The notes under the pieces were generated by a model. It was not told the DNA's origin. It searched no databases and saw nothing but the letters and a program-made list of their open reading frames with translations. Below, one piece after another: positions 35,305 through 51,186 of a stretch of DNA of 64,000 bases. Position numbers and translations under genes: made by a program. Source of the DNA: an uncultured Actinomycetes bacterium. GTDB lineage: Bacteria > Actinomycetota > Thermoleophilia > Gaiellales > Gaiellaceae. How positions within the stretch are numbered: the first letter of the stretch is position 1; every line of letters starts with the position of its first letter. The DNA is taken from positions 7,825 through 71,824 of the forward strand of contig CAVQDQ010000004.1 of assembly GCA_963711315.1 (NCBI GenBank). Reading direction: 5' to 3'.

Positions 35305-35305
35305 G

Positions 35306-36478: not shown

Positions 36479-37158
36479 GAGCCCTCGGCGAGCCGGAACA
36501 CGACCCTCGCGACGGGCGTTCCCTGGTCGTTCGTGGCGCTCCGCGCAGGCTGCTCGTCGAGCCAGAGCTCGTCAGCGGCGACCGGCGTGAGCACTGCCTG
36601 CAGGTCGGCGAGGCTGTGGAACGCGATCCGGTCGGCGTCGCTCGAGCCGTCGCCGAGCGGCACTTCCACCCCGACGATTGCGCCGGGTCGGCCGACGCGC
36701 TCGATCTCGCGCAGCACCTTCCCGGCGTCGAACGAGTGCTCCAGCGAATGGGACGCGTAGACGGCGTCGAAGACAGCGTCGCCGAAGCTCATGTCGTGCA
36801 TGTCCATGACGAGGATGTCCGGGTGCGGTGAGACGAGATCGATCCCGACCACCCGGCCGACGCCTGCGGCACGGAAGAGGTCGAGCTCGACTGTGTTCCG
36901 GCAGCCGACGCAGAGCACCGACGACGCGCGCGACAGGTCTCCGAGCTCGACGACCCTGCGGACGAGCTGACGTGCGCCAGCTCCCGGGTCGTTCTCGCGC
37001 TTCGACAGCGTACGCCGCTGCTGCACCTCGAGATACTCGCGGTAGTCGGTCGGCTTGCCCCTGCCGAGCCGCCTCAGACCGGGCCGGTGACGGAGATCGG
37101 TGACAGAGCCCGCCGTCGCCCGAAGACGTGTCCGGATTCCCAGTCTCGCCACCTTCAT
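36475..37158 (-). CDS. Class I SAM-dependent methyltransferase (Methyltransf_11-like)
   Basis: Contains VLCVGCRNTVE...DMSFGDAVFDAVYASHSLEH...PGAIVGVEV. The start forms an ATGA overlap. Confidence 0.8.
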   Translation of the reverse strand: MKVARLGIRTRLRATAGSVTDLRHRPGLRRLGRGKPTDYREYLEVQQRRTLSKRENDPGAGARQLVRRVVELGDLSRASSVLCVGCRNTVELDLFRAAGVGRVVGIDLVSPHPDILVMDMHDMSFGDAVFDAVYASHSLEHSFDAGKVLREIERVGRPGAIVGVEVPLGDGSSDADRIAFHSLADLQAVLTPVAADELWLDEQPARSATNDQGTPVARVVFRLAEGS

Positions 37159-37910
37159 GGGCGGTCAGGATACGGATAGGGCGGGCGATCGATCTTCGTG
37201 AGCAAGGCGGCACCCGAGGCCACGAGCGCCTCTGCGCGCTCCCAGTCCACCTCGTCGTCGACGTTGAAGCCCTCCAGGCCTTCCGTCAGGAACGGCGCGA
37301 GCACCCGGCCCTCGCGCGTGCCGGTCTCGGTGACGACGCGCGTCCACGCGATCTCGAGCGCGCTGTTCTGGTGATAGACGGGCGGCAGCGCCTGGTACTG
37401 GCCCGCGTGCCACGCCACCTCGAGATGGGACTGGTCGAGCAGAGGCGTCATGGTGCGGCCGTCCTCGGCGAGCTCCCACATCTTCCCGGGGTGCTGCTTG
37501 ACCAGCTCGACGGCGCGGATGGAGTCCGCTTCAGGAGTGGCGAGCAGCTGCTCGAGGCCGCGCTGCACGACGTCGGGGCCGCGGAAAGGATTCGTCGCCC
37601 GAACGATGGCGAAGAGGTCGTAGCTCTCCGGCAGCCGCTCGAGCGTGTACGCGATCCACTCGATGTCCGGCGAGGTGGACGTTGCGAATTCCGCCGGGCG
37701 CAGGAAGGGGACGTCGGCGCCGTACCAGCGCGCGACCTCCGCGATCTCCTCGGAGTCGGTGGAGACGAGCACGCGCTCGAACACGCCCGCCTGCTGCGCG
37801 GTCGCGATCGCGTATCCGAGCAGCGGATGGCCTGCGAGCGGCCGGATGTTCTTGTTCGCCACGCGCTCGGAGCCGGAGCGCGCGCCGATGAGGGCGATCA
37901 CGCTGGGCAT
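37155..37910 (-). CDS. Acylneuraminate / ulosonic-acid cytidylyltransferase family (CTP_transf_3, NeuA/KdsB-like)
   Basis: Reads MPSVIALIGARSGSERVANKNIRPLAGHPLLGYAI...STDSEEIA...PFLRPAEFA...VRATNPF.... It overlaps the upstream gene by 13 nt. Confidence 0.85.
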   Translation of the reverse strand: MPSVIALIGARSGSERVANKNIRPLAGHPLLGYAIATAQQAGVFERVLVSTDSEEIAEVARWYGADVPFLRPAEFATSTSPDIEWIAYTLERLPESYDLFAIVRATNPFRGPDVVQRGLEQLLATPEADSIRAVELVKQHPGKMWELAEDGRTMTPLLDQSHLEVAWHAGQYQALPPVYHQNSALEIAWTRVVTETGTREGRVLAPFLTEGLEGFNVDDEVDWERAEALVASGAALLTKIDRPPYPYPDRP

Positions 37911-38729
37911 TGTGCAAGGGCCTCTTCGAGGGTAGGTGTGGGAACGCCGAGTCGGCGGCCCGCGCGGACGACCGCGCCGCCGATCGCGTCGAGCTCCGAG
38001 GGCCGCCCGGCGGAGACGTCGCGTTCCGTTGACGACGTGGCCCAGTCCGGCAAGGACTCGATGATCGCCCATTGCTCGTCGAACGTCGTCCGGGCGCCGT
38101 CCGCTGCGGCGACCGCGCACGCTTCCTCGATTGCCAGGCGCAGCCGCTGGCCGGTCCGCAGCTCGCCGATCGTCTCACCTGCCACCGACGTCAGCACGGC
38201 GATCGGACCCTGGCGGGCGAGCTTCTCCCACAGCACGTCCTTCTCGTTTCGCCACGTCCGTGTGGCGATGCCCGCGCGTTCGAGTTGCTCCGGGGCCTCG
38301 TCGGTGGCGACGTTCACGAGCCCTGGAGTCTGCTGAACGATGCGGGTGGGCGATTCCCGATACCCCTCGAAATGACCGATCGTCGCCGCGACGACGCTTC
38401 GAAACCTGTCGCGCAGCACAGCCATGTGCTCGATGCCGTTCAGCAGGGGGAGAACGAGCCCGGGCTCGGCCCGGATGCGCGCGATGCCGTCTTCCAGACC
38501 GTACGCCTTCACCGTGACGAGCAAGAGGTCGACGGGCTCCTCCAGCCGCTCCGTGACCTGGAGCTGCTCGGTGTGCTCGCCGTCGTCCGTCACGAGCGTC
38601 AGGCCTTCGGCGGCAATCGCCGCCGCGGTCTCCGGCCGCGCCACGCAGACGACGCGCTCGCCGGCAAGCGCCATGCGGACGCCGAGCGCACCCCCGACCG
38701 CCCCCGGACCCGAGGACCGCGACGCTCAT
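37898..38729 (-). pseudogene. Ketopantoate-reductase-family (ApbA/PanE) oxidoreductase, one homopolymer frameshift
   Basis: From the ATG at 38729, MSVAVLGSG is followed by a G5 run (plus-strand C5 at 38701-38705). With G4 the text reads GSGAVGGALGVRMALAGERVVCV..., which is continuous with ORF 37898..38674. Confidence 0.85.
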
Positions 38730-40154
38730 ATCTTGGCCGGATCGCTGATGAGGTTCACGTACTTCCACTCCGAGTACACGTCGAGCGCCTCCACACCGGG
38801 CTCGCGCCAGCCGGTGCCCGATTGCTTCACGCCGCCGAAGCCCATGTGCGGCTCCGAGCCATGCGTCCCGCCGTTCACGACGACGACGCCAGCCTCCGCC
38901 TTCTCGGCAAACCGCATCGCTCGGTGCAGGCTCGCCGTGTGAACGGCGCACGTGAGGCCGTACGGCGAGTCGTTGACGACGGTCAGCGAGTCCGCCAGGT
39001 CATGGACGCGATAGAGGATCGTCACGGGGCCGAACAGCTCGGTGCAAGAGAGCTCGGCGTCGGCAGCAACGTCTTCCAGGATCGTCGGCGCAAGCCACCA
39101 ACCGTCACGCTCGAGACGCTCGCCGCCGCAAAGCACTCTGGCGCCCGCCTCGCGTGCCCGCGCGAGGGCATCGAGGATTCGGCCGAGGCTCGCCTCGCTG
39201 ATCACCGGGCCCGTGTCCGCGAACTCCTGGGCGGCTTCCACAAAGCGGCTGCGGAACTCGTCGTACACGGCGTCGAAGATGACGATTCTCGAGGCGGCCG
39301 CACACCGCTGGCCGGCGTTCGAGAACGACGATTGCACCGCCCAGCGGACGGCGTTGTCCAGATCCGCGTCGTCGCAGACGACCAGTGCGTTCTTGCCGCC
39401 CAGCTCCAGGCAGACCTTCGCCAGCCGCCGGCCGGCCGCCTCCGCGATCCAACGCCCCGTCGCCGCCGAGCCCGTGAAGCTGACGAGATCGACCTGCGGA
39501 TGCTCGACCAGGGCGGCACCAGCCTCGGCGCCGAGCCCCTGCACGACGTTGAGGACGCCCGCCGGCACACCGACCTCGTGGCAGACACGCGCGAAGAGTT
39601 GTGCCGAGAGCGGCGTCTCCTCGGAGGGTTTCAGCACGGTGCCGTTGCCGCAGAAGATCGCCGGGAACACCTTCCAGGCGACGTTCGGAAGCGGTGTGTT
39701 GAAGGAGATCAGCAGGCCCGCAACGCCCACGGGCTGCCGGACGGCCATCACCGTGCGGTGGGGCATGCTCGCGGTCGTCGTCCGTCCGTAGTAGCGGCGG
39801 CCCTCGCCCGCCACGAAGAGCCCCAGCTCGATCGCCGCGTCGGTCTCACCCAGGGCGAGCGCCTCTGCCTTTCCAGTCTCCTCGACGACGACCTCCGAGA
39901 GCTCCTCGCGCCGTTCCCGCAGCGCCAGCGAGATCTCGCGGACGAGATCGCCGCGCTCTACCGCCGTCCGCTCGGCCCAGGGCTCCTGTGCCACCCGCGC
40001 AGCCTGCACCGCAGCGTCGACGTCGGCCGCCCCGGACCGCGCAACGCGACACAGCGGCGCGCCGTCCGACGGCCGCAGCTTCTCGAGCCACTCGCCCCGA
40101 GCTCGCCGGCACCGCCTCGCCCGCGATGAGGTTGGGCACGTCGGCGACAGCCAC
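38726..40154 (-). pseudogene. NAD(P)+-dependent aldehyde dehydrogenase, one homopolymer frameshift near the N-terminus
   Basis: The GTG at 40154 gives VAVADVPNLIAGEAVPASSG, which stops matching at the G4 run (plus-strand CCCC at 40095-40098). It then continues as EWLEKLRPSDGAP...FTGS...ELGGKN...SNAGQRCAA.... An AAGG lies upstream of the GTG. Confidence 0.88.
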
Positions 40155-40164
40155 GGGGCCAACC

Positions 40165-40632
40165 TTAGGCGCTCGCTTGATCGGGCGACGGCCGCAGCAC
40201 GAGCGTCTCATTCGGTGCGTGCGCAAGCATCCAGGCGACGTCCTTGCCCGAGAAGCCGGGATGTCCCGGAGCGAGCGCGGGCACGAGGATGCGATCGAAG
40301 GTCTCCACCTCCCACAGTCTCCCGAGTGCATCGATCGGCGTCCGCCCTCGCTCTATGCGGGCATCGACCGGGACGCCGGCGCGCGCAGCAGCGGTCTCGA
40401 CTGCTTCCAGCAGCGGCAGCGCTTCCTCGGCCTGCCGTGCGAGCGCGGCTTCGACGTCGAACTCGAGCGGCACCACGACGAGAAAGGCGGCGACGAGGAT
40501 CGCTTCCTCCGCCCGTGCGATGCGAATCGCCGCCTGCAGCACTGCCGGATCGAGCGCGCCGTCCGCGAAGGGCACTAGCAGCCGCGGCTGGCCCTCGCGC
40601 CGTTCGGCCGTCTTTCGTCGCCGGAGCCTCAC
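40165..40632 (-). CDS. Universal stress protein (Usp) family
   Basis: 155 aa with LLVPFADGALDPAVLQAAIRIARAEEAILVAAFLVVVP.... It forms a GTGA overlap with the KdpD-N gene. Its stop lies 10 nt before the ALDH start. Confidence 0.7.
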   Translation of the reverse strand: MRLRRRKTAERREGQPRLLVPFADGALDPAVLQAAIRIARAEEAILVAAFLVVVPLEFDVEAALARQAEEALPLLEAVETAAARAGVPVDARIERGRTPIDALGRLWEVETFDRILVPALAPGHPGFSGKDVAWMLAHAPNETLVLRPSPDQASA

Positions 40633-41717
40633 GGCGGTCGCTCCTCGCGCAGCGCGCGGTCGGCGATGACGCGGATGTCGATCCCGGGCAGCTCGCGGAC
40701 CATCCGGGACAACAGCGACCCGCGGACGATCTCAACGCGGCGGCGCTCGTCGGGCGTGCCGACGAAGACGTACGTCGACCCGCGCTCGGCGGCCACCCGT
40801 CCGACCGTCGCCACGAGGTCATCGCCCTCCTCCTCGAGGAAATGGACGCCGAGGATGGAGGCGAGCCGCCGCAGGGCGGCCAGCTGCGTTGCCTCCTCGG
40901 CCGTGAGCTGCTGGCCGGGGTGGCGCATCCACATGGCGTCGATATCGCTTCCCAGCCGCTGCGCCGACCGCCAGGCGCGGCGCAGGATGCGCTGGGACTT
41001 CGGCTGCGGTTCGATGAGTGCGAGCACCCGCTCCGTGACCGCCTGCTGGCTGAGCGGGTCGAGCACCTTCGGTGAGCGACGGGCCTCGACGTCCTCGGCC
41101 ACCTCTCGCAGCGCAAGCTCACGCAGCGCGGAAAGGTTCTCCTGGGTGAAGAAGTTCAGCAACGCCCGCTCGGCCTGGCCGCCGGGGTAGACCTTGCCCG
41201 CCCGCAAGCGCTCCTGCAGCGCCTCGGGCGAGAGATCGACCAACACGACCTCGTCGGCGTCGTCCAGCACGCGGTCGGGGAAGGTCTCGCGGACGCGAAC
41301 TTCGGTCAGCTCCGCGACTGCGTCGTTGAGGCTCTCCAGGTGCTGGACGTTCACCGTCGAGATGACGTCGATACCGGCGGCGAGGATCTCGTCGATGTCC
41401 TGGTAGCGCTTCTCGTTGCGCGAGCCGGGGGCGTTCGTATGCGCAAGCTCGTCGACGAGTGCGAGCTCGGGCGCCCGGCGTATGACGGCGTCCACATCCA
41501 TCTCCTCGAGCCCGAGCGAGCCGTGCTCGATGGGTCGGCGCGGCACGGTCTCGAGCCCCTCGGCGAGGGCGGCCGTCTCAGGACGATCGTGCGGCTCGAG
41601 GTAGCCGATCACGACGTCTCGGCCTTCCGCCTTTGCCTGGCGACCCTCCTGGAGCATCCGGTAGGTCTTGCCGACGCCGGCCGCCATCCCGAGGAGGATC
41701 CGGTACCGGCCTCGCAT
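40629..41717 (-). CDS. Stand-alone KdpD N-terminal sensor domain (KdpD-N plus Usp-like), without TM or kinase parts
   Basis: Reads MRGRYRILLGMAAGVGKTYRMLQEG...VIGYLEPHDRPET...ALVDELAHTN...RYQDIDEILAAGIDVISTVNVQHLES.... It ends after the Usp-like region, at 362 aa. Confidence 0.85.
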   Translation of the reverse strand: MRGRYRILLGMAAGVGKTYRMLQEGRQAKAEGRDVVIGYLEPHDRPETAALAEGLETVPRRPIEHGSLGLEEMDVDAVIRRAPELALVDELAHTNAPGSRNEKRYQDIDEILAAGIDVISTVNVQHLESLNDAVAELTEVRVRETFPDRVLDDADEVVLVDLSPEALQERLRAGKVYPGGQAERALLNFFTQENLSALRELALREVAEDVEARRSPKVLDPLSQQAVTERVLALIEPQPKSQRILRRAWRSAQRLGSDIDAMWMRHPGQQLTAEEATQLAALRRLASILGVHFLEEEGDDLVATVGRVAAERGSTYVFVGTPDERRRVEIVRGSLLSRMVRELPGIDIRVIADRALREERPP

Positions 41718-41726
41718 GGCGGGAGG

Positions 41727-43786
41727 TTATGCCCCGAAGACGTTGTGGATGAGCAGGTCGATCAGCTTGATGCCGACGAACGGCAGGATCACGCCGCCCA
41801 GCCCGTAGATGAGGAGGTTGCGCCGCAGCAGCGCCGTCGCCCCGATCGCGCGGTACTTCACGCCGCGCAGAGCGAGCGGTACGAGCGCGGGGATGACGAG
41901 CGCGTTGAAGATGATCGCGGAGATGATCGCGCTGTAGGGGCTGCCGAGGTTCATGACGTTCAGCTGGCCGAGAGGGCCTTCCTCGCCCGGAACAGTGGAG
42001 TAGGTGAAGGCGAACATCGCCGGCAGGATGGCGAAGTACTTTGCGACATCGTTCGCGATCGAGAACGTCGTCAGCGAGCCGCGGGTGATGAGGAGCTGCT
42101 TCCCGACCTCGACGATCTCGATGAGCTTCGTCGGGTTGGAGTCGAGGTCGACCATGTTGCCGGCCTCCTTGGCAGCGGTCGTCCCGGTGTTCATCGCCAC
42201 GCCGACGTCGGACTGGGCCAGCGCAGGCGCGTCGTTCGTCCCGTCACCCGTCATCGCGACCATGCGGCCGCGAGCCTGCTCCTCCCGGATGAGCTCGAGC
42301 TTCCGCTCGGGCGTCGCCTCGGCGAGGAAGTCGTCGACGCCCGACTCCTGCGCGATCACGGCGGCGGTGACCGGGTTGTCGCCCGTGATCATCACCGTGC
42401 GGATGCCCATCTTCCGCAGCTCGTCGAAGCGCTCGTTCATGCCGCCCTTGACGATGTCCTTGAGGTGGACGACGCCGAGCGCGAAGTTGTCCTTGGCGAC
42501 GACGAGCGGCGTGCCTCCCTGCTCGGCCACCTGCTGCACGATCCCGTCGAGCTCGGCGGGGGCGCTCCCTCCCTGCTCGCGATGAACTCCTTGACGGCGT
42601 CGGCGGCGCCCTTGCGGATCATCGTCCCGTTCATGTTGAGGCCGCTCATGCGCGTCGTCGCGGAGAACGCCACGAACTCGTGCTGCTCGCCGAGCTCGCG
42701 CTCGCGCAGCCCGAACTGCTCTTTGGCGAGCACGACGATCGAGCGGCCTTCGGGAGTCTCGTCGGCGAGTGAGGCGAGCTGTGCCACCTCTGCCAGCTCG
42801 AGCGTCTCGACACCTGAGAGCGGCAAGAACTCGGCTGCCTGACGGTTGCCGAGCGTGATCGTGCCGGTCTTGTCGAGCAGCAGGACGTCGACGTCGCCCG
42901 AGGCCTCTACCGCGCGGCCGGACATCGCGAGCACGTTGCGCTGCACGAGGCGGTCCATGCCGGCGATGCCGATCGCCGAGAGCAGCGCGCCGATCGTCGT
43001 CGGGATGAGGGCCACGAGCAGCGCGATGAGGACGGTCTGGGACAGATGCGTGCCGGCGTAGTCCGCGAACGGCGCCAGCGTGACCGTCGCGACGACGAAC
43101 GTGATGGTCAGGCCGGCGAGCAGGATGTTGAGCGCGATCTCGTTCGGCGTCTTGCGGCGCTCGGCGCCCTCGACGAGGGCGATCATGCGGTCGAGGAACG
43201 AGCGGCCCGGCTCCTGCGTGACCTCGATGACGAGCCGGTCCGAGAGCAGCCGTGTGCCGCCGGTCACGGCCGAGCGGTCGCCGCCTGCCTCGCGGATCAC
43301 CGGCGCCGACTCGCCCGTGATCGCGGACTCGTCGACCGAGCCCACGCCCTCGATGATCTCGCCGTCGGCGGGGATGACCTGGCCGGCTTCGACCACGACG
43401 ATGTCGCCGCGCTGGAGATCGGGTGCGGCAACCTCCTCCAGCCCGCCGGTGTCGGTTCGCCGGAAGGCCATGGTCGTCGTGCGCGTGGCGCGCAGCGCGT
43501 TGGCCTGCGCCTTGCCACGGCCTTCGGCGACCGCCTCCGCGAAGTTCGCGAACAGCACCGTCAGCCATAGCCAGAGCGCGATCGTGCCGGTGAACCAGAG
43601 CGGCTCCGATTCGTCCGACGAGAAGAGGTCGCGGAAGAAGATCACCGTCGTGATCACGCTGCCCAGCTCGACGATGAAGATCACCGGGTTGCGGAAGAGC
43701 GTCCGCGGGTCGAGCTTCACGAACGAGTCGCCAATCGCGTGGAAGACGATCGCGCGGGTGAAGATGCCGCCGCTGCGCGTCGTCAT
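41727..43786 (-). pseudogene. kdpB: K+-transporting P-type ATPase subunit B, one apparent frameshift
   Basis: Starts [39 protein letters not shown]. Contains ...[13 protein letters not shown].... The break is near 42560-42590. It then continues as ...[11 protein letters not shown]...[13 protein letters not shown].... The ATG overlaps the kdpC stop (ATGA). Confidence 0.9.
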
Positions 43787-44368
43787 GCCGTCTCCTCGTC
43801 CAGCGCCAGGTTGAGCTCGAGCACGTTCACGCCCGGCTCGCCGAAGATGCCCAGCCAGCGCCCGTCTGTGTTCTCGTCGATCAGCCCCTCGACGCGGTCC
43901 AGGGAGAGCCCACGGACTTCCGCCACGCGCGCCGTCTGGAGTTGGGCGTTGGCCGGGGAGATGTGCGGATCGATGCCCGACCCAGAGGTCGTCACGGCGT
44001 CGACGGGGATGTCGCCGATCCGCAGACCCGGGTTGTAGGGGCGCTCCAGCTTGAGAATCGCGAGCACGCGTTGACGTACGGCCTTCGCGAGGTCGGGGTT
44101 CGTCGGGCCGAGGTTGGCGAACGTCGTCGCGGCGGCGTTGTACTCGGGTGCCGTCGCCGAGGGCCGCGGGTGGAAGTACTCGCGGCTTTGTGAACGCCTG
44201 CGCGGCGAGGCGGGAGCCGACGATCTTGCCGTCGCGCTCGATGAGGCTGCCGTCCGCGCGGCCGGGCGCGATGAGCTGCGCGAGCCCGGTGAACGCGAGG
44301 GGATAGGCGAGGCCGAAGACGAGCGTCAGCACGACGACGGCGATGACGGAGCGGCCGAGCGTGCGCAT
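43783..44368 (-). pseudogene. kdpC: K+-transporting ATPase subunit C, one apparent frameshift
   Basis: [24 protein letters not shown]...[23 protein letters not shown] continues after a break near 44186 as [31 protein letters not shown]...[16 protein letters not shown]...[11 protein letters not shown]. It is located between kdpA and kdpB. Confidence 0.88.
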
Positions 44369-46072
44369 CAGGGAGAAAGCGCCTCCACGATCGGGCCCAG
44401 AGTGAGGGCCGGGAAGAGCATCAGGCCGGCGGTCAGGATCGCGACGCCTACGAGCAGGACGGCGAACGTCGTGCCGTCGGTGCGGAACGTTCCCGCGGAC
44501 GGCGGTACGGTCCTCTTGGCGGCCAGCGAGCCACCCAGCGCCAGCGCTGCGATGAGCGGCGCGAAGCGTCCCAGCCAGAGCGCAATCGAGCCGACGAGCG
44601 TCGAGAACTCCGTCGCGCCGTAGCCGGCGAACGCGCTGCCGTTGTTGTTCGACTGGGAGTCGTAGGCGTACAGCGCCTCGGAGAAGCCGTGCGCAGCCGG
44701 ATTGAAGATGGATGCCAGGCCGCGATCGGTGGCGATCGAGATCGCAGTCAGTACGAGCACCATCGTCGGCACCAAGAGCGCGCCGACAGCAGCGAGCTTG
44801 ATCTCCCTCGCCTCGATCTTCTTCCCGAGGTATTCGGGCGTACGGCCCACCATCAGCCCCGCCACGAAGACGGCGATGACGATGTAGAAGAACATCCCGT
44901 AGAGACCGGAGCCGACACCGCCCCAGATGACCTCGCCCGTGAACATGTTCGCAATGGGCACGGCTCCGCCCGTCGCGGTCAACGCGTCATGGCCGCCGTT
45001 GACCGACCCGTTGGAGGCGTTCGTCGTCGCCACGGCCCAGTTGACCGTGGACGCGATGCCGTAGCGGACCTCCTTGTCGGACATGTTGCCGCCGCTCTGC
45101 CCGTCGCCGGCAGTGATGTTCACGCCGGAGTCACGTAACACCTGGGATCCGTGCTGCTCGGCCGGTAGCGCGACGGCGAGGCCGATGATCGTCATCGCCA
45201 TCATGGCCCCGTAGATGGGCAGCGCCTGGCGGCGCGCCCCGATCATGCGGCCGAACATGAAGACCTGCGCTGCGGGGATGAGCAGGATGGACAGCATCTC
45301 CAGGAGGTTCGTGAAGGGGTTCGGGTTCTCGAAGGGAACGGCCGAGTTCGAGTTGTAGAAGCCGCCGCCGTTCGTCCCCAGCTGCTTGATCGCGATCTGC
45401 GTCGCCGCCGGGCCGCGTGCGATCGTCTGCTGGGCGCCCTCGACCGTCGTCGCGGTCGCCTAGCCGTCGAACGTCTGCACGACGCCCTGTGTGATGAGCA
45501 CCACCGCGAGAATCGCGGCCAGCGGGCAGCAGGATGTAGACGAGCGAGCGGTAGAGGTCGACCCAGAAGTTGCCGACCGTCGACGCCGAGCGCCGCGCGA
45601 AGCCGCGGATGACGGCGACCAGCACGGCCATGCCGAGCGCAGCGGACACGAAGTTCTGCACTGCCAGCCCGGCCATCTGGCTCAGGTACGACATCGTGTA
45701 CTCGCCGCCGTAGTACTGCCAGTTCGTGTTGGTGACAAAGCTCGCGGTCGTGTTCATGGAGACCCACGAGTTCACGCCTTTGAGGCCATCGGGGTTGAAC
45801 GGCAGGTGACCTTGTAGCCGCAGCAGGAGATAGAGCAGCACGGCGAAGACGCCCATGAAGATGAGCGCCGTCTTCGCATAGCCCTTCCAGCCCTGCTCCT
45901 CCTCGGCCCGCGTTCCCAGGAGCCGGTAGAAGCCGCGCTCCGGTGCGGTGAGCCAGCGCGGCATGCGCAGCGTGCCCGCGTAGACCCGCGACATGTAGAT
46001 GCTGAGCGGGTACGCCAGCACCGTGAGGATCACGACGTAGAGGACGATCTGCGTGATGCCGTTGCCGGTCAC
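44368..46072 (-). pseudogene. kdpA: K+-transporting ATPase subunit A, one frameshift plus an in-frame TAG
   Basis: The GTG at 46072 overlaps the kdpF stop. VTGNGITQIVLYVVIL...NTNWQYYGGE... breaks near 45520. It continues as ...[61 protein letters not shown]..., with the TAG at 45460-45462. The frame is then intact to 44368. Confidence 0.9.
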
Positions 46073-46158
46073 AGCTTCTCGCCTCGGAACAGCACGTAGA
46101 CGAGATACGCGACCACGAGTACCGCGACGACGAGGCCGAAGATGTCGCCCGCGGCCAT
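46069..46158 (-). CDS. kdpF: K+-transporting ATPase subunit F (29 aa)
   Basis: Reads MAAGDIFGLVVAVLVVAYLVYVLFRGEKL. It is a single hydrophobic helix. Its stop overlaps the kdpA GTG (GTGA). Its ATG overlaps the stop of the preceding small ORF. Confidence 0.75.
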   Translation of the reverse strand: MAAGDIFGLVVAVLVVAYLVYVLFRGEKL

Positions 46159-46241
46159 CAGACGCGGCTCAACACGTAGATGACCGCGAACGAGAACGCG
46201 AAGCACGCGAGCGCGATGACGATGCCGAGCAACTCGACCAT
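46158..46241 (-). CDS. Small hydrophobic ORF (27 aa) immediately upstream of kdpF
   Basis: Reads MVELLGIVIALACFAFSFAVIYVLSRV. It is chained by TGATG overlaps to both neighbours. No family was recognised. Confidence 0.4.
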   Translation of the reverse strand: MVELLGIVIALACFAFSFAVIYVLSRV

Positions 46242-46537
46242 CAGTGCTCCAGCGCCTCGGCCGCGTCGTCAAGTGCTTCGCCGAGCTCGTCCGCCCGGTC
46301 ACGGTCGTGAAGCGGGCTCCAGGGGTCGTCGAGCAGTTGCTCGAGGAGCAGGACGCCGCGCGGCGCGACAGGGCGCTCGAGATCGGCGAGCCGGTCGGCG
46401 AGCGCGAGAAAACTCTCCGCTTCCGCGCGAACGGCGAGGCGGTCGAACGTCTGGGCACCAGGGAGATAGCGGGCGTCGGAATCGTGGACGAGCCGGCGCA
46501 GCGTGTGCGCGAGGTCGAGGCGCCGCTTCGGGATCAC
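46241..46537 (-). CDS. Hypothetical acidic helical protein (98 aa), first ORF of the kdp transcription unit
   Basis: The GTG at 46537 gives VIPKRRLDLAHTLRRLVHDSDARYL...LLEQLLDDPWSPLHDRDRADELGEALDDAAEALEH. Third positions are G/C-rich on this strand. Its stop overlaps the next ORF's start (TGATG). Confidence 0.5.
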   Translation of the reverse strand: MIPKRRLDLAHTLRRLVHDSDARYLPGAQTFDRLAVRAEAESFLALADRLADLERPVAPRGVLLLEQLLDDPWSPLHDRDRADELGEALDDAAEALEH

Positions 46538-46699
46538 GAGCTCGGCCGCGCGCCAGGAAAGCCGCAGGGACGGGCACCGGCGAACGAAGCAGCTCCCGGT
46601 CCGCGACCCGTCGCGCGCGCGCGCAGCTGGCGCCGCTGGCGAAACGATTGCACGACCTGCGTCAAGATATTCGAGGCTACGGACGGCCGCCTGAGCGCC

Positions 46700-46738
46700 G
46701 TCTAAGGGTTCGAGCCGCCGGTCTAAGAGTTGTCTAAA
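46700..46738 (-). promoter_or_regulatory. Three phased direct heptad repeats (minus strand TTTAGAC, CTTAGAC, CTTAGAC; starts spaced 11 and 21 nt). Candidate KdpE operator.
   Basis: The plus-strand copies are GTCTAAG at 46700-46706 and 46721-46727, and GTCTAAA at 46732-46738. They lie in the only sizeable intergenic gap of the minus-strand train. A TANNNT hexamer (TAGCCT, 46674-46679) lies downstream. Confidence 0.45.
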
Positions 46739-47420
46739 GCGCCGGATTGACCAGGCGGTAGCCGACGCCGGCCTCCGTGAGGATGTACCTCGGTCGCGAT
46801 GGATCGGGCTCGAGCTTGCGTCTCAGCTGCGACACGTAGACGTGGATGTAGCTCGACTCCCGCTGGTAGGCGGGCCCCCAGACCTCGCGCAGGAGCGTCG
46901 TGTGGGTGAGCAGCTTGCCTTCGTTCTTCGCCAGCAGGCGGAGCAGCTCGAACTCGTGCGGCGTGAGGTGGACGGGCTCTCCCGCCATGGCCACCGAGTG
47001 CTTCTCGAGGTCGACGACGAGGTCGCCGATCTCGAGCACGGTGAGGCCGGCGGGCTCGACTCTCCGCAGCACCGCCCGCAGCCGCGCGAGTAGCTCGCCG
47101 ATCGCGAACGGCTTCGTGACGTAGTCGTCGGCGCCGGCGTCGAGCGCCGCCACCTTCTCCGCCTCCTCGCCGACGGCCGAGACGAGGATGATCGGCGCCT
47201 GCGTCCACTCGCGCAGCTCGCGGCAGACGTCGGTGCCGCGCCCGTCAGGCAGCAGGAGGTCGAGGATGATCGCCTCGGGCGGCTGCAGCCCGGCCGCAGC
47301 AAGCGCCTCCTGGGCCGTCGTTGCCGTCGCGACGTCGTAGCCGGCGCCGCGGAGGTTCGTCTGCAGTGCCCGTAGGAATTGCGGCTCGTCGTCGACGACG
47401 AGAATCCGCTCTCCGCTCAC
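46734..47420 (-). CDS. kdpE: OmpR/PhoB-family response regulator (KdpE-like)
   Basis: Contains ILVVDDEPQFLRAL...IILDLLLPDGRG...DDYVTKPF (receiver domain). A winged-helix domain follows (...LTPHEFELLRLL...VYVSQLRRKLE...GVGYRL). It forms a GTGA overlap with the kinase gene. Confidence 0.92.
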   Translation of the reverse strand: MSGERILVVDDEPQFLRALQTNLRGAGYDVATATTAQEALAAAGLQPPEAIILDLLLPDGRGTDVCRELREWTQAPIILVSAVGEEAEKVAALDAGADDYVTKPFAIGELLARLRAVLRRVEPAGLTVLEIGDLVVDLEKHSVAMAGEPVHLTPHEFELLRLLAKNEGKLLTHTTLLREVWGPAYQRESSYIHVYVSQLRRKLEPDPSRPRYILTEAGVGYRLVNPAL

Positions 47421-48815
47421 GCAGGCACCTCAGCCGGCAACTCGACCACGGGCAAGGCGAGTACGAACGACGCGCCCTGGCCCTCGCGCGACTCGAGCCA
47501 GAGGCGGCCGCCGTTCGCTTCGGTGAAGCCGCGGGCGATTGCCAGGCCAAGCCCCGCGCCGCGCTGGTCGGGCTGCCCGTCGACCCGGTAGAAAGGCTCG
47601 AAGATGTGCTCGTACTCCTCCTCGGGAATCCCCGGCCCGCGGTCGGTGACGCGAATCAGCAACTCCTTCCGGGTGGCGTTCACGCGCACGTGCACCCGCT
47701 CGTCCGGCGGCGAGAGCCTGATCGCGTTCTCGAGCACGTTCACGAGCGCCCGCTGGATCTGCGTCGCGTCGACCTGGACAGGAGGGCACGTCGGGACGCG
47801 CGTCCACGACGACCTGCTCCGGATCGGCGAGCTCGTCCATCGGCCTGCGCGAGCAGTTCGTCCGCCGTCCAGAGCTCGGGGCTCGCTACTGCCGCACCGG
47901 CCTGGAGCCGCGAGAGATCGAGGAGGTTCTCGACGAGCCGCTTCAGCCGCGTGTGCTCGACGCGGATCGTCTCCAGCAGGTCGACCCGGTCCTCGTCGGA
48001 GAGCGCCAGCTCGCCGCTCTGGAGCCCGTCCAGCGCCTGCTCGATCGTGGCCAGCGGCGTGCGGAGATCGTGTGACACGGTCTGGATGACGGCGGTCTTG
48101 ATCGTGTCGCTGCGGCTGAGTGCCTCGGCCTCGAACGCGTCGCTCGCCAGCCGCTCCCGCTCCTGGGTGACGGCCAGCAGCGAGGCGAGCGCCGGTAGGA
48201 ACCGCCGCTGTATGGCGAGGGCGGGCTCCTCGCTCTCGCTGCGTGTAGATCGTGCCGATCTCCCTGCCGTCGACGGCGAGCGGATGCGGTGCCTCGCCCG
48301 TACGCTCGCTCACCCGCCCGCCGAGCGCGATGCGCACCGAGGAAACGCCGAGCACCGTCGGCCGTTCTCTGCTCGATGCGTTCGAGCTCATCGTCCAGCC
48401 GCGTGCCGCGCAGGAGCTCGACAGCGATGTCTGCGAGCAGCGATGCCTCGAGCTCGCGTTGCTCAGCCTCGGCCCGCTGTCCTCGGGCCCGAGAGGCCAG
48501 GGTGCCGACGACGATCGCCGTCACCACGTAGACGAGCAGCGCGAACCAGTTGCTGCGGTCGGCGAGCGTGAACGAGTACACCGGCGGCAGGAGGAAGAAG
48601 TTGAACGCGAGCATGCTCGCGACCGCCACCAAGACCGCGTAGGCGATGCCCCAGAAGAGCGCAATCGGCAGGACAGCGAAGACGTAGAGCACGCCGAGGC
48701 TGAGCACCGGGATGAAGTCGTCGAGAACGGCAATCGCCGCAGTGACGACGGTGACCGCGAGCGCCCCGGCCGCGATGCCGGCCAGCGGGCTCTTCAGCGA
48801 CTCAGCGATCCAGCC
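47417..48815 (-). pseudogene. Membrane sensor histidine kinase equivalent to the C-terminal half of KdpD, at least 4 frameshifts. The start is not resolved.
   Basis: The TM bundle is SLKSPLAGIAAGALAVTVV...VLYVFAVLPIALFWG...NFFLLPPVYSFTLAD...LLVYVVTAIVVG. It is followed in changing frames by ...VLGVSSVRIALGG..., VSHDLRTPLATIEQ (H-box), ...ALVNVLENAIRL (N-box) and ...DRGPGIP...GAGLGLAIARG (G-boxes). The breaks are near 48385, 48245, 47850 and 47795. Confidence 0.8.
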
Positions 48816-48825
48816 GCATGAGGAG

Positions 48826-49614
48826 CTACCAGGCCGACCAGCCGCCGTCGACGACGAGGTTTGCCCCCGTGACGTACGACGAGGCGTCCGACGCGAGGAA
48901 GACGACGGCGCCAAGCGCCTCGCCTGCATCGGCCATTCGCCCGAGCGGCACCCGTGCGCCATAGGCCTCGAGGAACTCCTGGGGCTGCTCGTTGAAGATC
49001 CCGCCCAGCGTCAGCGTGTTCACGCGCACGCCGGACTGCGCCCAGTAGGTGGCGAGGTAGCGCGTGAGGTTCAGCAGCGCCGACTTCGATACCGAGTAGG
49101 CAACCGGCTTGAAGAACGTCTCGCCCTTGCTGCGCCGGAACTCGTAGAGATCCTGCGGTGGTGAGAGGAGGCCGTAGACGGACGAGACGTTGACGATCGA
49201 GCCACGTCCCGCCTCGGCCATCGCGGCGCCGATCGCCTGACAGCAGAGGACGACACCCTTGACGTTGACGTCCATGACCTCGTCGAAGGAGGCCTCCGGG
49301 TACGTCTCGAAGGGGCCGACCTCCTCGGGCGGCGCGTCCGGCGGCGAGTCGAGCGCGGCGTTGTTGACCAGCAGGTGCGGCGCGCCCCACTCGGCAGTGA
49401 CCTCGGCCGTCGCCGATTCGATCGACGCCCGGTCCTTGACGTCGACCCGGTAGCGGCGGACGCTGTCGTCACCACCCGGCTCGGCCGCGACGTCGAACAC
49501 GGCCACACGCATGCCGCGCGCGGCAAGGCCGTCGGTGTAGACCTGCCCCATCTGGCCGAGACCGCCGGTGACGACGGCCACGCGGCCGGCGAGATCGAAC
49601 AGCTCGTCGGTCAC
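48826..49614 (-). CDS. Short-chain dehydrogenase/reductase
   Basis: The GTG at 49614 gives VTDELFDLAGRVAVVTGGLGQMG...NNAA...SSVYG...YSVSKSA...VTGANLVVDGG. It forms a GTGA overlap with the upstream gene. Confidence 0.88.
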   Translation of the reverse strand: MTDELFDLAGRVAVVTGGLGQMGQVYTDGLAARGMRVAVFDVAAEPGGDDSVRRYRVDVKDRASIESATAEVTAEWGAPHLLVNNAALDSPPDAPPEEVGPFETYPEASFDEVMDVNVKGVVLCCQAIGAAMAEAGRGSIVNVSSVYGLLSPPQDLYEFRRSKGETFFKPVAYSVSKSALLNLTRYLATYWAQSGVRVNTLTLGGIFNEQPQEFLEAYGARVPLGRMADAGEALGAVVFLASDASSYVTGANLVVDGGWSAW

Positions 49615-50132
49615 GCGTGCGCCTTCCAGATCGCATCGCAGAACTCGCGCACGCAGCCGTCGCCTCCCGCGCGCGTCAGCACCCAATGCGCGTGCTCTCT
49701 CGCCTCCGGCCACGCATCGGCCGGCACGACGGGAAGCCCGACCGCCTCGAGGCATGTCGCGTCGTTGATGTCGTTGCCGACGTACGCGGTCTGCTCGAGC
49801 TCGATCCCGCGCGCCACGGCCTGCTCGCGGAGCAGGGACAGCTTCTCCTCGATCCCCTGGATGCACTCGATGCCGAGCTTGCGCGCCCGCACACCCACGA
49901 CCGGCGCCGTCTCCATCGACACGACCAGCGCCTCGACGCCAACCTCGCGCAGCCGGCGGAGGCCGAGCCCATCGGCGCGGCAGCAGCGGACGCTCTCGCG
50001 TCCGTCGTCGTCGACCCAGACGTGGTTGTCTGTGAAGACCCCGTCGAAATCGAAGACCGCGAGCCGCACCGACGCCAGGGTCTCGCGCGACGGCGCCGCC
50101 GGCTCAGCTTGCAGCACGCACCACCGGCTCAT
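49611..50132 (-). CDS. HAD-IIIA phosphatase of the KdsC/YrbI type (ulosonate-8/9-phosphate phosphatase-like)
   Basis: Contains LAVFDFDGVFTDN...ADGLGLRRL...YVGNDINDA...GGDGCVREFCD. The start is uncertain within 50100-50132. Confidence 0.82.
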   Translation of the reverse strand: MSRWCVLQAEPAAPSRETLASVRLAVFDFDGVFTDNHVWVDDDGRESVRCCRADGLGLRRLREVGVEALVVSMETAPVVGVRARKLGIECIQGIEEKLSLLREQAVARGIELEQTAYVGNDINDATCLEAVGLPVVPADAWPEAREHAHWVLTRAGGDGCVREFCDAIWKAHA

Positions 50133-51186
50133 CGAGGGGTACGAGCGCGTCGGTCGTCACAGGCTCGTCTGCACGCAGCCCACGGTCGAGCGAACGGCCG
50201 AGCAGCCGGTCGAGCTCGAACGGCGCGAGTCCACCGTCGGCCGGCGAGCGCGCGACGAGGTCGCCTTCGGCGATCACATGTCCGGGCTCGAGGTCGCGCG
50301 CGGCGACGAGCATCTTCCCCATCTTCCTGAGCGCCGGCTCCTCGGACGGCAGCTGGCGCTTGACGCCGTCACCGAGCGCTGCGGGCACGCGTCGCAGGTC
50401 GCGGACGAGCTTGCGCATCCCCTCCGGCATCAGCGAGAACGCATGGTCCGTGCCCTTGAGCGTGTGCGAGAGCGTGAAGTGCTTCTCCATGATCCGCGCG
50501 CCGAGCATGTACGCCACCAGCGACATCGCGATGCCGTCCTGATGATCCGAGAGGCCGACGACGAGCTCCGGGTAGCGGTCGCGAAAGGTCGTGATCACGC
50601 CCAGCTCGAGCTCGTCGACCGGGGCCGGATAGGCAGCCGTGCACTGGAGCAGGCAGAGCTGCGAGTTGATCGGCAGCACCGCCTCGACGGCGCGGTCGAC
50701 ATCGTCGATGGTCGCGCCGCCCGTGGAGACGATCATCGGCTTACCGAGCGATGCGACGTGCCTCAGCAGCGGTGTGTTACGGAGATCTCCCGAGGCGATC
50801 TTGTAGGCCGGCATATCGAGCTCGGCCAGGAGATCGGCGCTCGGCTCGTCGAAGGCAGTGGCGAAGAAGGCGAGGCCGAGCTCTCTGGCACACGCCTGCA
50901 GCTCCTTGTACTCGCCGACATCGAACTCGAGCGCTTCGCGGTGCTCGCCGTATGTGGGCCCGAACGAGTTCTCGTGGTCGTACGGCGCGTCGTACGCCGC
51001 CCTGGTGTAGAGCGAGCGGTTGTGGCGCTTCTGGAGCTTCACGGCGTTCACACCACACTGAGAGGCGGACAGGAAGAGCTTCTGCGCCTGTTCCACCGAG
51101 CCCTGGTGGTTGTGGCCGATCTCGGCGATGACGTAGCAGTCGCCGTCGTCCGAGATACGGGTGCCGTCGATGACGAGTTCGCGCAT
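50104..51186 (-). CDS. NeuB-family ulosonic acid synthase (sialic-acid-synthase fold with a C-terminal SAF domain)
   Basis: Reads MRELVIDGTRISDDGDCYVIAEIGHNHQGSVEQAQKL...AVKLQKR...YKIASGDL...PMIVSTG...LLQCTAAYPAP...GLSDH...EKHFTL.... A SAF-like tail follows. The upstream 81 aa of ORF 50104..51429 were not called. Confidence 0.88.
   Translation of the reverse strand: MRELVIDGTRISDDGDCYVIAEIGHNHQGSVEQAQKLFLSASQCGVNAVKLQKRHNRSLYTRAAYDAPYDHENSFGPTYGEHREALEFDVGEYKELQACARELGLAFFATAFDEPSADLLAELDMPAYKIASGDLRNTPLLRHVASLGKPMIVSTGGATIDDVDRAVEAVLPINSQLCLLQCTAAYPAPVDELELGVITTFRDRYPELVVGLSDHQDGIAMSLVAYMLGARIMEKHFTLSHTLKGTDHAFSLMPEGMRKLVRDLRRVPAALGDGVKRQLPSEEPALRKMGKMLVAARDLEPGHVIAEGDLVARSPADGGLAPFELDRLLGRSLDRGLRADEPVTTDALVPLDEPVVRAAS

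Follow-up and report, generated by a model that had tools for sequence, protein, structure and literature searches.

Organization of the locus

The 64,000-nucleotide stretch analyzed here (the window), from a soil actinobacterium, carries a cassette of enzyme genes headed by a NeuB-family synthase. A preliminary description had recognized its first three products as a NeuB-type synthase with an SAF domain, a KdsC/YrbI-type HAD phosphatase and an SDR, encoded with overlapping ends, and Pfam and NCBIfam matches bear out this reading. The remaining members lie beyond a kdp potassium-pump block. From the head of the cassette downward, the features are:

50104-51186, minus strand: NeuB-family synthase with SAF domain, 360 aa, first gene of the cassette, probably of the NANS/Kdn-9-P-synthase-like (KxQKR loop) subtype
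49611-50132, minus strand: HAD-IIIA phosphatase of KdsC/YrbI fold, 173 aa, with a Glu/Lys pair of the Kdn-9-P-phosphatase type
48826-49614, minus strand: classical SDR oxidoreductase (adh_short_C2, E=6e-43)
40146-48827: kdp potassium-pump and sensor block, 8.7 kb, splitting the cassette between SDR and ALDH
38726-40154, minus strand: NAD(P) aldehyde dehydrogenase (ALDH; Pfam Aldedh, 1e-144)
37898-38725, minus strand: ApbA/PanE-type 2-oxoacid reductase (Pfam ApbA and ApbA_C)
37155-37910, minus strand: putative NeuA/PseF-like CMP-ulosonic acid synthetase (PF02348 CTP_transf_3, 73 bits)
36475-37164, minus strand: SAM methyltransferase (Methyltransf_11), an extra gene
35306-36571, minus strand: enolase-superfamily acid-sugar dehydratase (MR_MLE_N and MR_MLE_C)
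34510-35385, minus strand: second methyltransferase (Methyltransf_9/23 matches)
32597-34513, minus strand: transketolase-like (TK-like) ThDP enzyme with all three transketolase domains

The head of the cassette is tightly packed. The HAD gene begins with an ATG at 50132, 29 nt inside the synthase gene, whose stop codon occupies 50104-50106, and the GTG start of the SDR gene overlaps the TGA of the HAD gene as GTGA (49611-49614). All three genes are intact and full length compared with relatives at 93-94% identity. In this assembly, the ALDH gene has a one-base frame break within the G4 run at 40096-40099. The SAM methyltransferase is missing from the closest relative, L006, where the alignment has a gap from window position 37148 to 36477. 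The window also contains a TagB/F-like transferase and flanking envelope-glycan machinery, and a DegT aminotransferase and an ATP-grasp gene at 62-64 kb.

The kdp block, with a KdpD N-domain gene at 40629-41726, is variably present among close relatives. Comparison by blastn joins window position 48828 straight to about 40145 in L006 and L009, which lack the block; in L006, the ALDH gene directly follows the SDR gene with a GTGA overlap. The block occupies the same place in the same orientation in L007, L008 and L011 and is inverted in L013; no repeats of at least 10 nt were found at its junctions. Judged by these alignments, the block was inserted in this lineage and separates SDR from ALDH, and only because of it does the head of the cassette stand apart from the later genes. 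The cytidylyltransferase at 37155-37910, previously singled out as the only one in the window and as lying far off beyond kdp, is indeed the sole CTP_transf_3 gene, not only of the window but of the genome; its apparent separateness does not hold, since it belongs to the same cassette and is contiguous with the head in relatives lacking kdp.

In close relatives, the genes for synthase, HAD, SDR, ALDH, reductase, cytidylyltransferase, dehydratase, methyltransferase and TK-like enzyme form one unbroken run, and compact versions exist in which synthase, SDR, ALDH, cytidylyltransferase and TK follow one another in this order with no other gene in between. Across the 64 relatives' loci with at least 8 kb of downstream sequence, the SDR is the most constant partner of this synthase clade (60/64), followed by the ALDH (54/64), the cytidylyltransferase (43/64) and the HAD (20/64). 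The ApbA-type reductase (32/64) is confined nearly entirely to Gaiellales-type loci, and the enolase-type dehydratase (21/64) is also Gaiellales-type. A TK-like orthologue was present beside the cassette in all five genomes where the flank had missed it. The literature yielded no paper describing this cassette.

The synthase and the adjoining phosphatase

The synthase matches PF03102 (NeuB) over residues 40-276 (E=5e-76) and PF08666 (SAF) over residues 292-348 (E=9e-9). Its best NCBIfam models, NeuB_NnaB and PseI, would point to a classical NeuB, LegI or PseI enzyme whose substrate is not phosphorylated (ManNAc or a 2,4-diacetamido-6-deoxy hexose) beside an unrelated HAD protein, an option also favored by the DegT aminotransferase and ATP-grasp genes of the window. 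However, both models stay far under their cut-offs, at 288 bits against 399.65 for TIGR03569 (NeuB sensu stricto) and 222 bits against 340 for TIGR03586 (PseI). An alignment with Neisseria meningitidis NeuB (Nm) shows that the catalytic, PEP-binding and metal-binding residues E25, K53, Q55, K129, S132, S154, Y186, S213, H215, E234, H236 and D247 are kept in the synthase and its clade. At the position of Nm E134 the synthase has Asp, a conservative change. The counterpart of Nm R314 in the SAF domain is Ser in the window synthase, throughout its clade and in a BT1714-like enzyme, whereas most other NeuB-family members sampled have Arg. In the Nm enzyme, this Arg presumably touches the N-acetyl group of ManNAc. 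Arg314 is essential for the bacterial Nm NeuB, and eukaryotic enzymes have likewise exchanged Glu for Asp at Nm E134 and lost Arg314 (PMC8208679).

The clearest subtype signature is the loop K-x-Q-K-R ... N-S-[FY]-G-x-T-Y-G-x-H-R-x-x-L-E, which, together with K-G-T-D-H, the window synthase has in common with the two characterized Man-6-P enzymes of our set: the Prymnesium parvum Kdn-9-P synthetase (its sequence is given in the supplement to PMC6200933) and the BT1714-like synthase at locus L093, which adjoins a 99%-identical BT1713. The loop aligns with both enzymes with zero or one gap, and the signature is lacking in NmNeuB and Bacillus subtilis SpsE. This extended basic beta2-alpha2 loop, implicated in phosphate binding, has been credited with the use of ManNAc-6-P by the human enzyme (PMC8208679).

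The HAD protein has the core motifs of its superfamily: the DxD nucleophile (D-F-D-G), the Ser and the Lys. Motif IV reads G-N-D-x-N-D, with GND for GDD (first Asp replaced by Asn), as in the Streptomyces avermitilis structure 3mmz and all actinobacterial members. Its nearest solved structures are 3mmz (best, 4e-33), YrbI/KdsC-type proteins and BT1713 (3e81/3e8m). All of its NCBIfam scores lie under the cut-offs: 102 bits for KdsC NF007019 (cut-off 208), 97.6 bits for the Kdn-9-P phosphatase NF058599 (cut-off 180) and 93 bits for YrbI TIGR01670. At the positions of BT1713 E56 and K67, a pair that reportedly marks specificity for Kdn-9-P, Glu and Lys are found in the window protein and in every one of 30 clade members. 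The same holds for the 16 actinobacterial HADs checked, 15 of which adjoin a KxQKR synthase while one sits 6.4 kb from a non-KxQKR synthase. Escherichia coli KdsC, 3mn1 and 4nav have Arg plus Thr, Ser or Asp at these two positions.

The association of loop and phosphatase extends beyond the cassette. In 301 Actinomycetota genomes with 36 NeuB-family loci, a KdsC-like HAD lies at most 0.8 kb from 15 of the 17 KxQKR synthases and from none of the 19 others, and the 15 pairs are spread over seven families. Taken together, these sequence features indicate that the synthase is probably a member of the NeuB family of the NANS/Kdn-9-phosphate-synthase type, starting from a phosphorylated sugar.

Genome content was examined with the same question in mind; the genome is 88.7% complete, which applies to every genome-wide absence given here. 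The window contains no Epimerase_2 gene. The two strong Epimerase_2 genes of the genome, both far from the window, were considered as NeuC and rejected: they are WecB (TIGR00236, 443 and 216 bits, above cut-off), and the NeuC model TIGR03568 gives 76 bits or nothing. NanE was not found in the genome, nor was a type-I phosphomannose isomerase beyond a weak cupin match of 34.9 bits. Near the synthase, an Epimerase_2 homologue is found in one of 80 relatives' loci and a DegT homologue in six. With Arg314 missing as well, and given that 6-deoxy precursors cannot bear a 6-phosphate, which would leave the translationally coupled KdsC-type phosphatase unexplained, a classical NeuB, LegI or PseI activity is very improbable.

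Equally improbable is a route resembling that of Kdo-8-phosphate, in which PEP would be condensed with arabinose-5-phosphate and the HAD would be a true KdsC. The KdsC model does give the HAD its top score, but this amounts to half of the cut-off, and Glu takes the place of the KdsC Arg after the motif-II Ser/Thr-Gly. In the genome, the best KpsF/KdsD (arabinose-5-phosphate isomerase) score is 46 bits against a cut-off of 204, the KdsA (KDO8P synthase) model reaches 125 bits against 314, and KdsB was not found, the sole CTP_transf_3 gene resembling NeuA/PseF instead. The P. parvum relative of the synthase also rejects Ara-5-P.

The preliminary description had left a Kdn-9-P and a Kdo-8-P-like route side by side: from the pairing with a KdsC-type phosphatase it had concluded that the synthase probably condenses PEP with a sugar phosphate, and it had seen no NeuC. 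The Kdo-8-P half is disfavored by the missing Kdo genes and Arg marker. The rest is strengthened by sequence and context: the loop, the Ser at R314, the Glu/Lys pair, the linkage of 15 of 17 KxQKR synthases to a HAD and the failure to find NeuC or NanE. The searches of the genome for neuC and neuA that it had called for returned no NeuC and a single NeuA/PseF-like gene, inside the same cassette; the combination it named as contrary evidence, neuC elsewhere together with ManNAc-type synthase residues, was not found.

Position in the tree leaves room for a different substrate. A maximum-likelihood (ML) tree places the window synthase in a cross-phylum clade of its own (support 100/99), distinct from those of BT1714, P. 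parvum and the Streptomyces-type synthases. The 22 KxQKR sequences of the tree are all grouped in one half of it, the deep split being weakly supported (78/78). Identity to each of the two Man-6-P enzymes is 33%. The separate clade, the low identity and the weak deep split mean that the substrate may be a different anionic aldose. In such a scheme, the SDR, ALDH and TK-like enzyme would act before the synthase to make an uncommon aldose with a negative charge, such as an aldehyde of the uronic-acid type. The KxQKR loop would bind the carboxylate of this substrate in place of a phosphate, and the HAD would be accessory in some lineages. The scheme would suit the roughly two thirds of relatives' loci without a HAD, the absence of phosphate-ester binding residues from the TK-like enzyme (see below) and the distance from proven Man-6-P enzymes. 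It is nevertheless unlikely: where present, the HAD overlaps or abuts the synthase and has Kdn-9-P-phosphatase-type residues every time, the loop motif goes together with a neighboring phosphatase throughout the Actinomycetota set, and P. parvum has no dedicated phosphatase homologue either, although its synthase takes Man-6-P only.

Enzymes accompanying the synthase

The nearest named families of the SDR are gluconate 5-dehydrogenase, KduD and other sugar-acid dehydrogenases, all under cut-off. For the ALDH they are the 2,5-dioxovalerate and alpha-ketoglutarate semialdehyde dehydrogenases, again under cut-off, which work on omega-aldehydes of 2-oxo acids. The ApbA-type reductase exceeds the cut-off of its model (TIGR00745, 153.6 bits against 141), and the enolase-type dehydratase comes nearest to galactonate dehydratase, under cut-off. 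By its sequence matches, the cytidylyltransferase is closer to NeuA/PseF than to KdsB: it scores 122 bits with PseF TIGR03584 (cut-off 206, not reached) against at most 41 bits with the KdsB models, and its PDB matches are 4e-23 to 4e-15 for NeuA/CMAS (CMP-Neu5Ac synthetases) and 1e-6 for KdsB.

The TK-like enzyme, with human transketolase as best PDB match (3e-70), has the three-domain fold of human TKT and E. coli TktA, and keeps their ThDP and Mg ligands and catalytic histidines (human H37, H77, H110, H258 and E366; E. coli D155 and N185). It differs from both in that all four phosphate-binding residues are replaced (human R318 by Val, S345 by Asp, H416 by Tyr and R474 by Ile), as is the Asp that reads the donor C4 hydroxyl stereochemically (human D424, here Pro). 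In an E. coli-based check, the columns equivalent to these residues were non-conserved or hydrophobic across 17 TK-like members of the clade. Without the phosphate binders and the hydroxyl-reading Asp, the protein would therefore not be an enzyme of the pentose phosphate pathway.

Proposed pathway and product

The phosphosugar route is known from Bacteroides thetaiotaomicron, Prymnesium and animals. In B. thetaiotaomicron, BT1714 is the Kdn-9-P synthase, BT1713 the Kdn-9-P phosphatase and BT1715 the CMP-Kdn synthetase; P. parvum has Kdn-9-P and CMP-Kdn synthetases. The window has in common with both a synthase of the KxQKR...NSxGxTYGxHR kind, a NeuA-type cytidylyltransferase and the lack of NeuC, and with B. 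thetaiotaomicron also an adjoining KdsC-fold HAD with Glu and Lys at BT1713 positions 56 and 67. It differs in the sequence divergence and separate clade of its synthase and in the GND of phosphatase motif IV; SDR, ALDH and TK-like partners are absent from the alga and, as far as L093 shows, from B. thetaiotaomicron. The animal NANS/NANP/CMAS pathway follows the same logic, from sugar 6-phosphate to 9-phosphate, dephosphorylation and CMP activation, and we take the human NANS loop to resemble that of the window synthase. However, animal NANP belongs to another HAD subfamily, and ManNAc-6-P there comes from GNE, an equivalent of which was not found in the genome. The putative synthase-phosphatase pairs for the Kdn-containing teichulosonic acids of Streptomyces belong to the same phylum and contain KxQKR synthases, and the S. 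avermitilis HAD 3mmz, the closest to the window HAD, has the same Glu/Lys pair and GND motif. In contrast, synthases of the Streptomyces type belong to another clade; they contain neither an SAF domain nor the NSxGxTYGxHR half of the loop, and have no SDR, ALDH or TK-like neighbors.

The explanation that we consider likely is that the phosphosugar synthase and the HAD perform the first two steps of a conserved, kdp-split cassette that makes a CMP-activated ulosonic acid. The synthase would condense PEP with a 6-phosphorylated aldohexose, most simply Man-6-P, yielding a 3-deoxy-nonulosonate 9-phosphate, from which the overlapping HAD enzyme would remove the 9-phosphate. The free ulosonic acid would then be tailored, activated by the NeuA-like enzyme and passed as CMP-sugar to the flanking envelope-glycan machinery. 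Gene identities, subtype signatures, contiguity in relatives and the failure to find NeuC, NanE or Kdo genes come directly from the DNA, and we infer from them the substrate and the order of the tailoring steps. Against this explanation stand the presence of the HAD in less than a third of the relatives' loci, its GND motif IV, its scores under the curated cut-offs and the frame break in the ALDH gene, as well as the synthase's low identity to the Man-6-P enzymes and the failure to find a type-I phosphomannose isomerase as a source of Man-6-P.

The linkage of this clade to an SDR, an ALDH and a phosphate-blind TK-like enzyme makes it probable that the product is not plain Kdn. A plain CMP-Kdn pathway, as in B. 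thetaiotaomicron or the Kdn teichulosonic acids of Streptomyces, with the SDR, ALDH and TK-like enzyme serving another glycan sugar or being peripheral, would have the merits of an established three-enzyme route, of actinobacterial walls known to hold Kdn polymers, often methylated, and of the methyltransferases and TagB/F-like transferase in the window. It is improbable, as the SDR and ALDH track the clade more constantly than do the HAD and the cytidylyltransferase, and as no other gene stands between synthase, SDR, ALDH, cytidylyltransferase and TK in the compact loci. Moreover, one Streptomyces-like genome encodes two synthases at separate places, one of the Streptomyces KxQKR type beside a HAD and one of the window clade beside SDR and TK-like genes, and the coexistence of two synthase types suggests different products.

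For the tailored ulosonic acid, the product may be a tail-trimmed di-acid. The scheme that we prefer, tentatively, uses the three accompanying enzymes in turn to yield a 3-deoxy-heptulosaric di-acid. The SDR would oxidize the C8 hydroxyl of a Kdn-type nine-carbon acid to a ketone; the phosphate-blind TK-like enzyme would cut the C7-C8 bond, C8-C9 leaving as a two-carbon unit; and the ALDH would oxidize the new C7 aldehyde to a second carboxyl group. On stereochemical grounds, we expect 8-oxo-Kdn to have in its tail the D-threo ketose configuration of transketolase donors, an argument weakened by the loss of the Asp that reads the donor C4 hydroxyl in the TK-like enzyme. In Gaiellales-type versions, including that of the window, the enolase-type dehydratase would remove the hydroxyl beside the new carboxyl and the ApbA-type reductase would reduce the resulting ketone, giving a 3,5-dideoxy derivative that would then be methylated. 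That the cassette product is CMP-activated 3-deoxy-hept-2-ulosaric acid, a seven-carbon di-acid, is possible but doubtful. With Man-6-P as substrate and the usual facial selectivity, it would be the L-arabino isomer, in contrast to the Dha of plant pectin, which is D-lyxo.

The phosphosugar route itself is already known; what is new is the set of enzymes constantly found with synthases of this clade. The cassette is widely conserved, and its product is probably a new acidic sugar of the cell surface; if this is indeed the seven-carbon di-acid, it would belong to a class of sugars without a known biosynthetic pathway.

Synthase, phosphatase and SDR genes in their genome

A NeuB-type synthase, a KdsC-type phosphatase and an SDR had been described from the DNA with overlapping ends, and the three genes are confirmed at the coordinates given there:

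50104-51186, minus strand, synthase of 360 aa with a NeuB domain (E=5e-76) and an SAF domain
49611-50132, minus strand, HAD-IIIA protein of 173 aa, with KdsC, the Bacteroides Kdn-9-P phosphatase model and the YrbI subfamily as top family matches
48826-49614, minus strand, classical SDR

The HAD gene starts 29 nt within the synthase gene, the HAD stop and the SDR's GTG start share the sequence GTGA, and all three genes are full length compared with orthologues of 93–94% identity. Homologue searches with the synthase protein returned close relatives with generic names only. The window has a G+C content of ~70%, and is most closely related to MAGs from soil that carry the labels Gaiellaceae, Gaiella or "uncultured Actinomycetes". 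On the other side of the synthase, the ORF of a divergent GT87/PMT-like membrane protein opens with GTG at 51161 and would overlap the synthase ATG (51186), so that two promoters would hardly fit, if at all, between the divergent starts.

The genome of the window (3.38 Mb, 6 contigs, 88.7% complete) carries a single gene of the NeuB family and a single CTP_transf_3 gene (37155-37910), so that the cytidylyltransferase first described as the only one in the window is also the only one in the assembly. Nor was a NeuC epimerase found elsewhere in the assembly: two strong Epimerase_2 genes lie far from the window, both are non-hydrolysing WecB by curated models, and in this 88.7%-complete genome the NeuC model gives them 76 bits or no score. 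In the same assembly, no NanE was found, and no gene scored above the cut-offs of the arabinose-5-phosphate isomerase and Kdo-8-P synthase models. The search for phosphomannose isomerase gave no type-I enzyme, only a weak cupin match, so that a supply of Man-6-P can only be presumed. With NeuC, NanE and the Kdo genes not found, neither a source of ManNAc or ManNAc-6-P nor a Kdo pathway is visible, and the Kdo-8-P-like option of the preliminary description finds no counterpart among the genes.

Substrate subtype of the synthase and phosphatase

The synthase was aligned with Neisseria meningitidis NeuB and Bacillus subtilis SpsE, both from PDB alignments, and with two characterised Man-6-P enzymes: the Prymnesium parvum Kdn-9-P synthetase, taken from the supplement of PMC6200933, and the synthase beside a 99%-identical copy of BT1713, the Bacteroides thetaiotaomicron Kdn-9-P phosphatase, on a Bacteroides-type contig. 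The window enzyme retains every catalytic, PEP-binding and metal-binding residue. Directly after strand β2 it reads K-L-Q-K-R ... N-S-F-G-x-T-Y-G-E-H-R-x-x-L-E-F and, further on, K-G-T-D-H; these motifs are present in both Man-6-P enzymes with at most one gap, whereas the NeuB and SpsE loops at that position are shorter and unrelated. The overall identity to each of the two Man-6-P enzymes is only 33%. The position of Arg314 of meningococcal NeuB is occupied by Ser in the window synthase's own cross-phylum clade (the window clade) and in the enzyme resembling BT1714, the B. thetaiotaomicron Kdn-9-P synthase. We take this arginine to touch the N-acetyl group of ManNAc. Arg314 is essential in the meningococcal enzyme, and the loop following β2 is the element to which ManNAc-6-P use by the human enzyme has been ascribed (PMC8208679); the P. 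parvum synthetase accepts Man-6-P as its sole substrate (PMC6200933). The residue comparison thus agrees with the earlier proposal of a phosphorylated substrate, and we file the window synthase, on its sequence, as a putative member of the phosphate-substrate subtype, leaving aside the exact sugar.

A maximum-likelihood tree was built from 41 family members; the 22 sequences with the basic-loop motif KxQKR all fall on one side of a deep split that is itself weak (78/78). The window clade (support 100/99) stands apart from the P. parvum group, the BT1714 branch and a Streptomyces-type group. As a search pattern, the whole NSxGxTYGxHR stretch was too strict, matching just one sequence outside the window clade; KxQKR is the half common to the window-clade and Streptomyces-type enzymes. 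The substitution E134D was rejected as a subtype marker, since Asp also occurs in several family members lacking KxQKR.

The phosphatase was examined through a rule that reportedly goes back to Lu et al. in 2009, by which Glu56 and Lys67 set BT1713 apart from KdsC, and which we checked by contrast with named KdsC structures. Glu and Lys occupy these columns in BT1713, the window HAD protein, all 30 clade homologues and the Streptomyces avermitilis structure 3mmz; in E. coli K-12 KdsC and two YrbI-type structures, 3mn1 and 4nav, the first is Arg and the second Thr, Ser or Asp. The DxD nucleophile motif of the window protein is intact. Its motif IV is GND, not GDD, a feature common to all actinobacterial members and 3mmz, and a caveat for the predicted phosphatase activity.

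The two genes were then related to each other across Actinomycetota. A NeuB-model search of 301 genomes gave 37 loci, of which 36 were taken, the window's own being left out; each synthase was sorted by the KxQKR motif and its neighbours were counted. A KdsC-like HAD gene lies within 0.8 kb of 15 of the 17 KxQKR synthases and of none of the 19 others, one of which has a HAD gene 6.4 kb distant. The test is not circular, because the groups were set by the synthase and the count was made on the neighbour. The 15 loci span seven families but are incompletely independent, seven belonging to one genus-level group. All HADs of the survey carry the Glu/Lys pair. The association of motif and neighbour supports a phosphate ester as the intermediate.

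The Streptomyces-type KxQKR synthases (loci L103-L112, L115, L117, L119 and L125) lack the SAF domain and have TPWGxM(T/S)Y in place of NSxGxTYGxHR. They probably make Kdn in producers of teichulosonic acids, and annotation seemingly does not tell them apart from NeuB. One large Streptomyces-like genome has both such a synthase with an adjoining HAD gene (locus L109) and a second synthase, belonging to the window clade at 59% identity (L118:3192-7944; contig G287:C1, ~3.498-3.502 Mb). The latter is followed by an SDR, a transketolase-like enzyme and an RraA-like aldolase, with no ALDH, cytidylyltransferase or HAD gene, and its synthase-SDR-transketolase trio may also have a role outside glycan synthesis.

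A biosynthetic cassette spread across phyla

Eighty loci encoding synthase relatives were fetched and screened for homologues of the genes in the window. The closest complete relative, locus L006 (93% identity), shows a gapless order: synthase, HAD, SDR, ALDH, ApbA-type reductase, cytidylyltransferase, enolase-type dehydratase, methyltransferase and transketolase-like gene. The cytidylyltransferase, first noted as lying 11 kb away on the far side of the kdp locus, is therefore part of the same cassette. A SAM methyltransferase gene (36475-37164) between the cytidylyltransferase and enolase-type dehydratase genes is extra in the window and missing from L006. Downstream of the transketolase-like gene, 28815-32600 holds polysaccharide-deacetylase-like, GNAT-like, TagB/F-type (Glyphos_transf) transferase and SLOG/LOG-like genes; of their products, the TagB/F-like protein is a candidate for polymerizing or transferring the CMP-sugar.

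The separation seen in the window comes from an 8.7-kb kdp block (40146-48827) lying exactly between the SDR stop and the ALDH start. By blastn, window position 48828 joins ~40145 directly in L006 and in a second locus, L009, where SDR stop and ALDH start overlap as GTGA; the block is thus an insertion into the cassette. L007, L008 and L011 have it at the same site and in the same orientation, L013 (11873-20529) at that site but inverted. No direct or inverted repeats of at least 10 nt were found at its junctions, so we refrain from classing it as mobile. In the G4 run at 40096-40099, where L006 is continuous, a one-base frame break cuts off the first 20 codons of the ALDH gene (from GTG at 40154) from the remainder. 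The kdpA, kdpB, kdpD and GT4 genes are also split in this assembly, which together with the ALDH break suggests long-read homopolymer errors.

Among the 64 loci with at least 8 kb of downstream sequence, SDR was located in 60, ALDH in 54, cytidylyltransferase in 43, and HAD and the transketolase-like gene in 20 each. Five further genomes in which the transketolase-like gene was missed in the flank encode an orthologue of 66–71% identity ~10-30 kb beyond. Homologues of Epimerase_2 and DegT aminotransferase occur near the synthase in 1 and 6 of the 80 loci, respectively. The core set of synthase, SDR, ALDH, cytidylyltransferase and transketolase-like gene recurs at synthase identities of at least 60% in Gaiellales, Chloroflexota, Gemmatimonadota, Acidobacteriota, Armatimonadota, Deltaproteobacteria-type MAGs and the cyanobacterium Moorena, lineages across which the window-clade synthase is spread at 60–94% identity.

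Tailoring enzymes, a possible product and significance

The cytidylyltransferase resembles NeuA/PseF, not KdsB, and the nearest named families of the ALDH oxidize the omega-aldehyde of 2-oxo acids. The transketolase-like enzyme is nearest to human transketolase (3e-70). Human TKT served for the residue comparison, the alignment with E. coli TktA being out of register at His261 and Ser385; in the human alignment His258 is kept and Ser345 is Asp. The ThDP, Mg and catalytic histidine residues are retained, while the human phosphate binders R318, S345, H416 and R474 are replaced by Val, Asp, Tyr and Ile, and the stereo-reading D424 by Pro; the equivalent substrate-binding columns are non-conserved in 17 clade members. 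Given the loss of the phosphate-binding residues, the enzyme would not be one for ordinary sugar phosphates.

These enzymes could be ordered in a scheme that trims the tail of the sugar. The SDR would oxidize the C8 hydroxyl of the dephosphorylated nonulosonate to a ketone; the resulting HOCH2-CO-CHOH tail would, by our own reasoning from the configuration of Kdn, have that of a ketose donor. The transketolase-like enzyme would then cut between C7 and C8, and the ALDH would make the C7 carboxylate, yielding 3-deoxy-heptulosaric acid. In Gaiellales-type versions, the acid-sugar dehydratase and 2-oxoacid reductase could deoxygenate the position beside the new carboxyl, after which the two methyltransferases could act. 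The scheme uses each core enzyme once, but we hold it only tentatively and think it rather unlikely to be right as drawn: the loss of the stereo-reading Asp from the transketolase-like enzyme counts against it. Dha is a heptulosaric acid of plants and algae whose biosynthesis and activated form are listed as unknown in reviews of 2012 and 2025; starting from Man-6-P, the predicted product would be an isomer distinct from it.

B. thetaiotaomicron and P. parvum are established users of a three-step route in which a sugar-6-P synthase, a KdsC-fold phosphatase and a CMP synthetase act in turn, parallel to the animal route, and the synthase-phosphatase pair is therefore already of a known type. Kdn polymers are known from actinobacterial walls. 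A literature search combining nonulosonic acids or Kdn with transketolase, aldehyde dehydrogenase or cytidylyltransferase returned nothing on the cassette; its cross-phylum, clade-specific linkage to an SDR, an ALDH and a phosphate-blind transketolase is undescribed in the searchable literature.

Proof that sialic-acid-like sugars are made by the phosphorylated route exists for very few bacteria, and this locus reveals a distinct, putatively phosphate-type synthase clade across many phyla, linked to three unexplained enzymes: the SDR, the ALDH and the transketolase-like protein. The KxQKR loop and the phosphatase Glu/Lys pair give a simple sequence rule for separating phosphate-route from free-sugar-route NeuB homologues, which databases at present annotate alike. 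If the trimming of a nine-carbon acid to a seven-carbon di-acid is true, it would be the first heptulosaric acid pathway and would put transketolase chemistry to a new use, on an already completed sugar.
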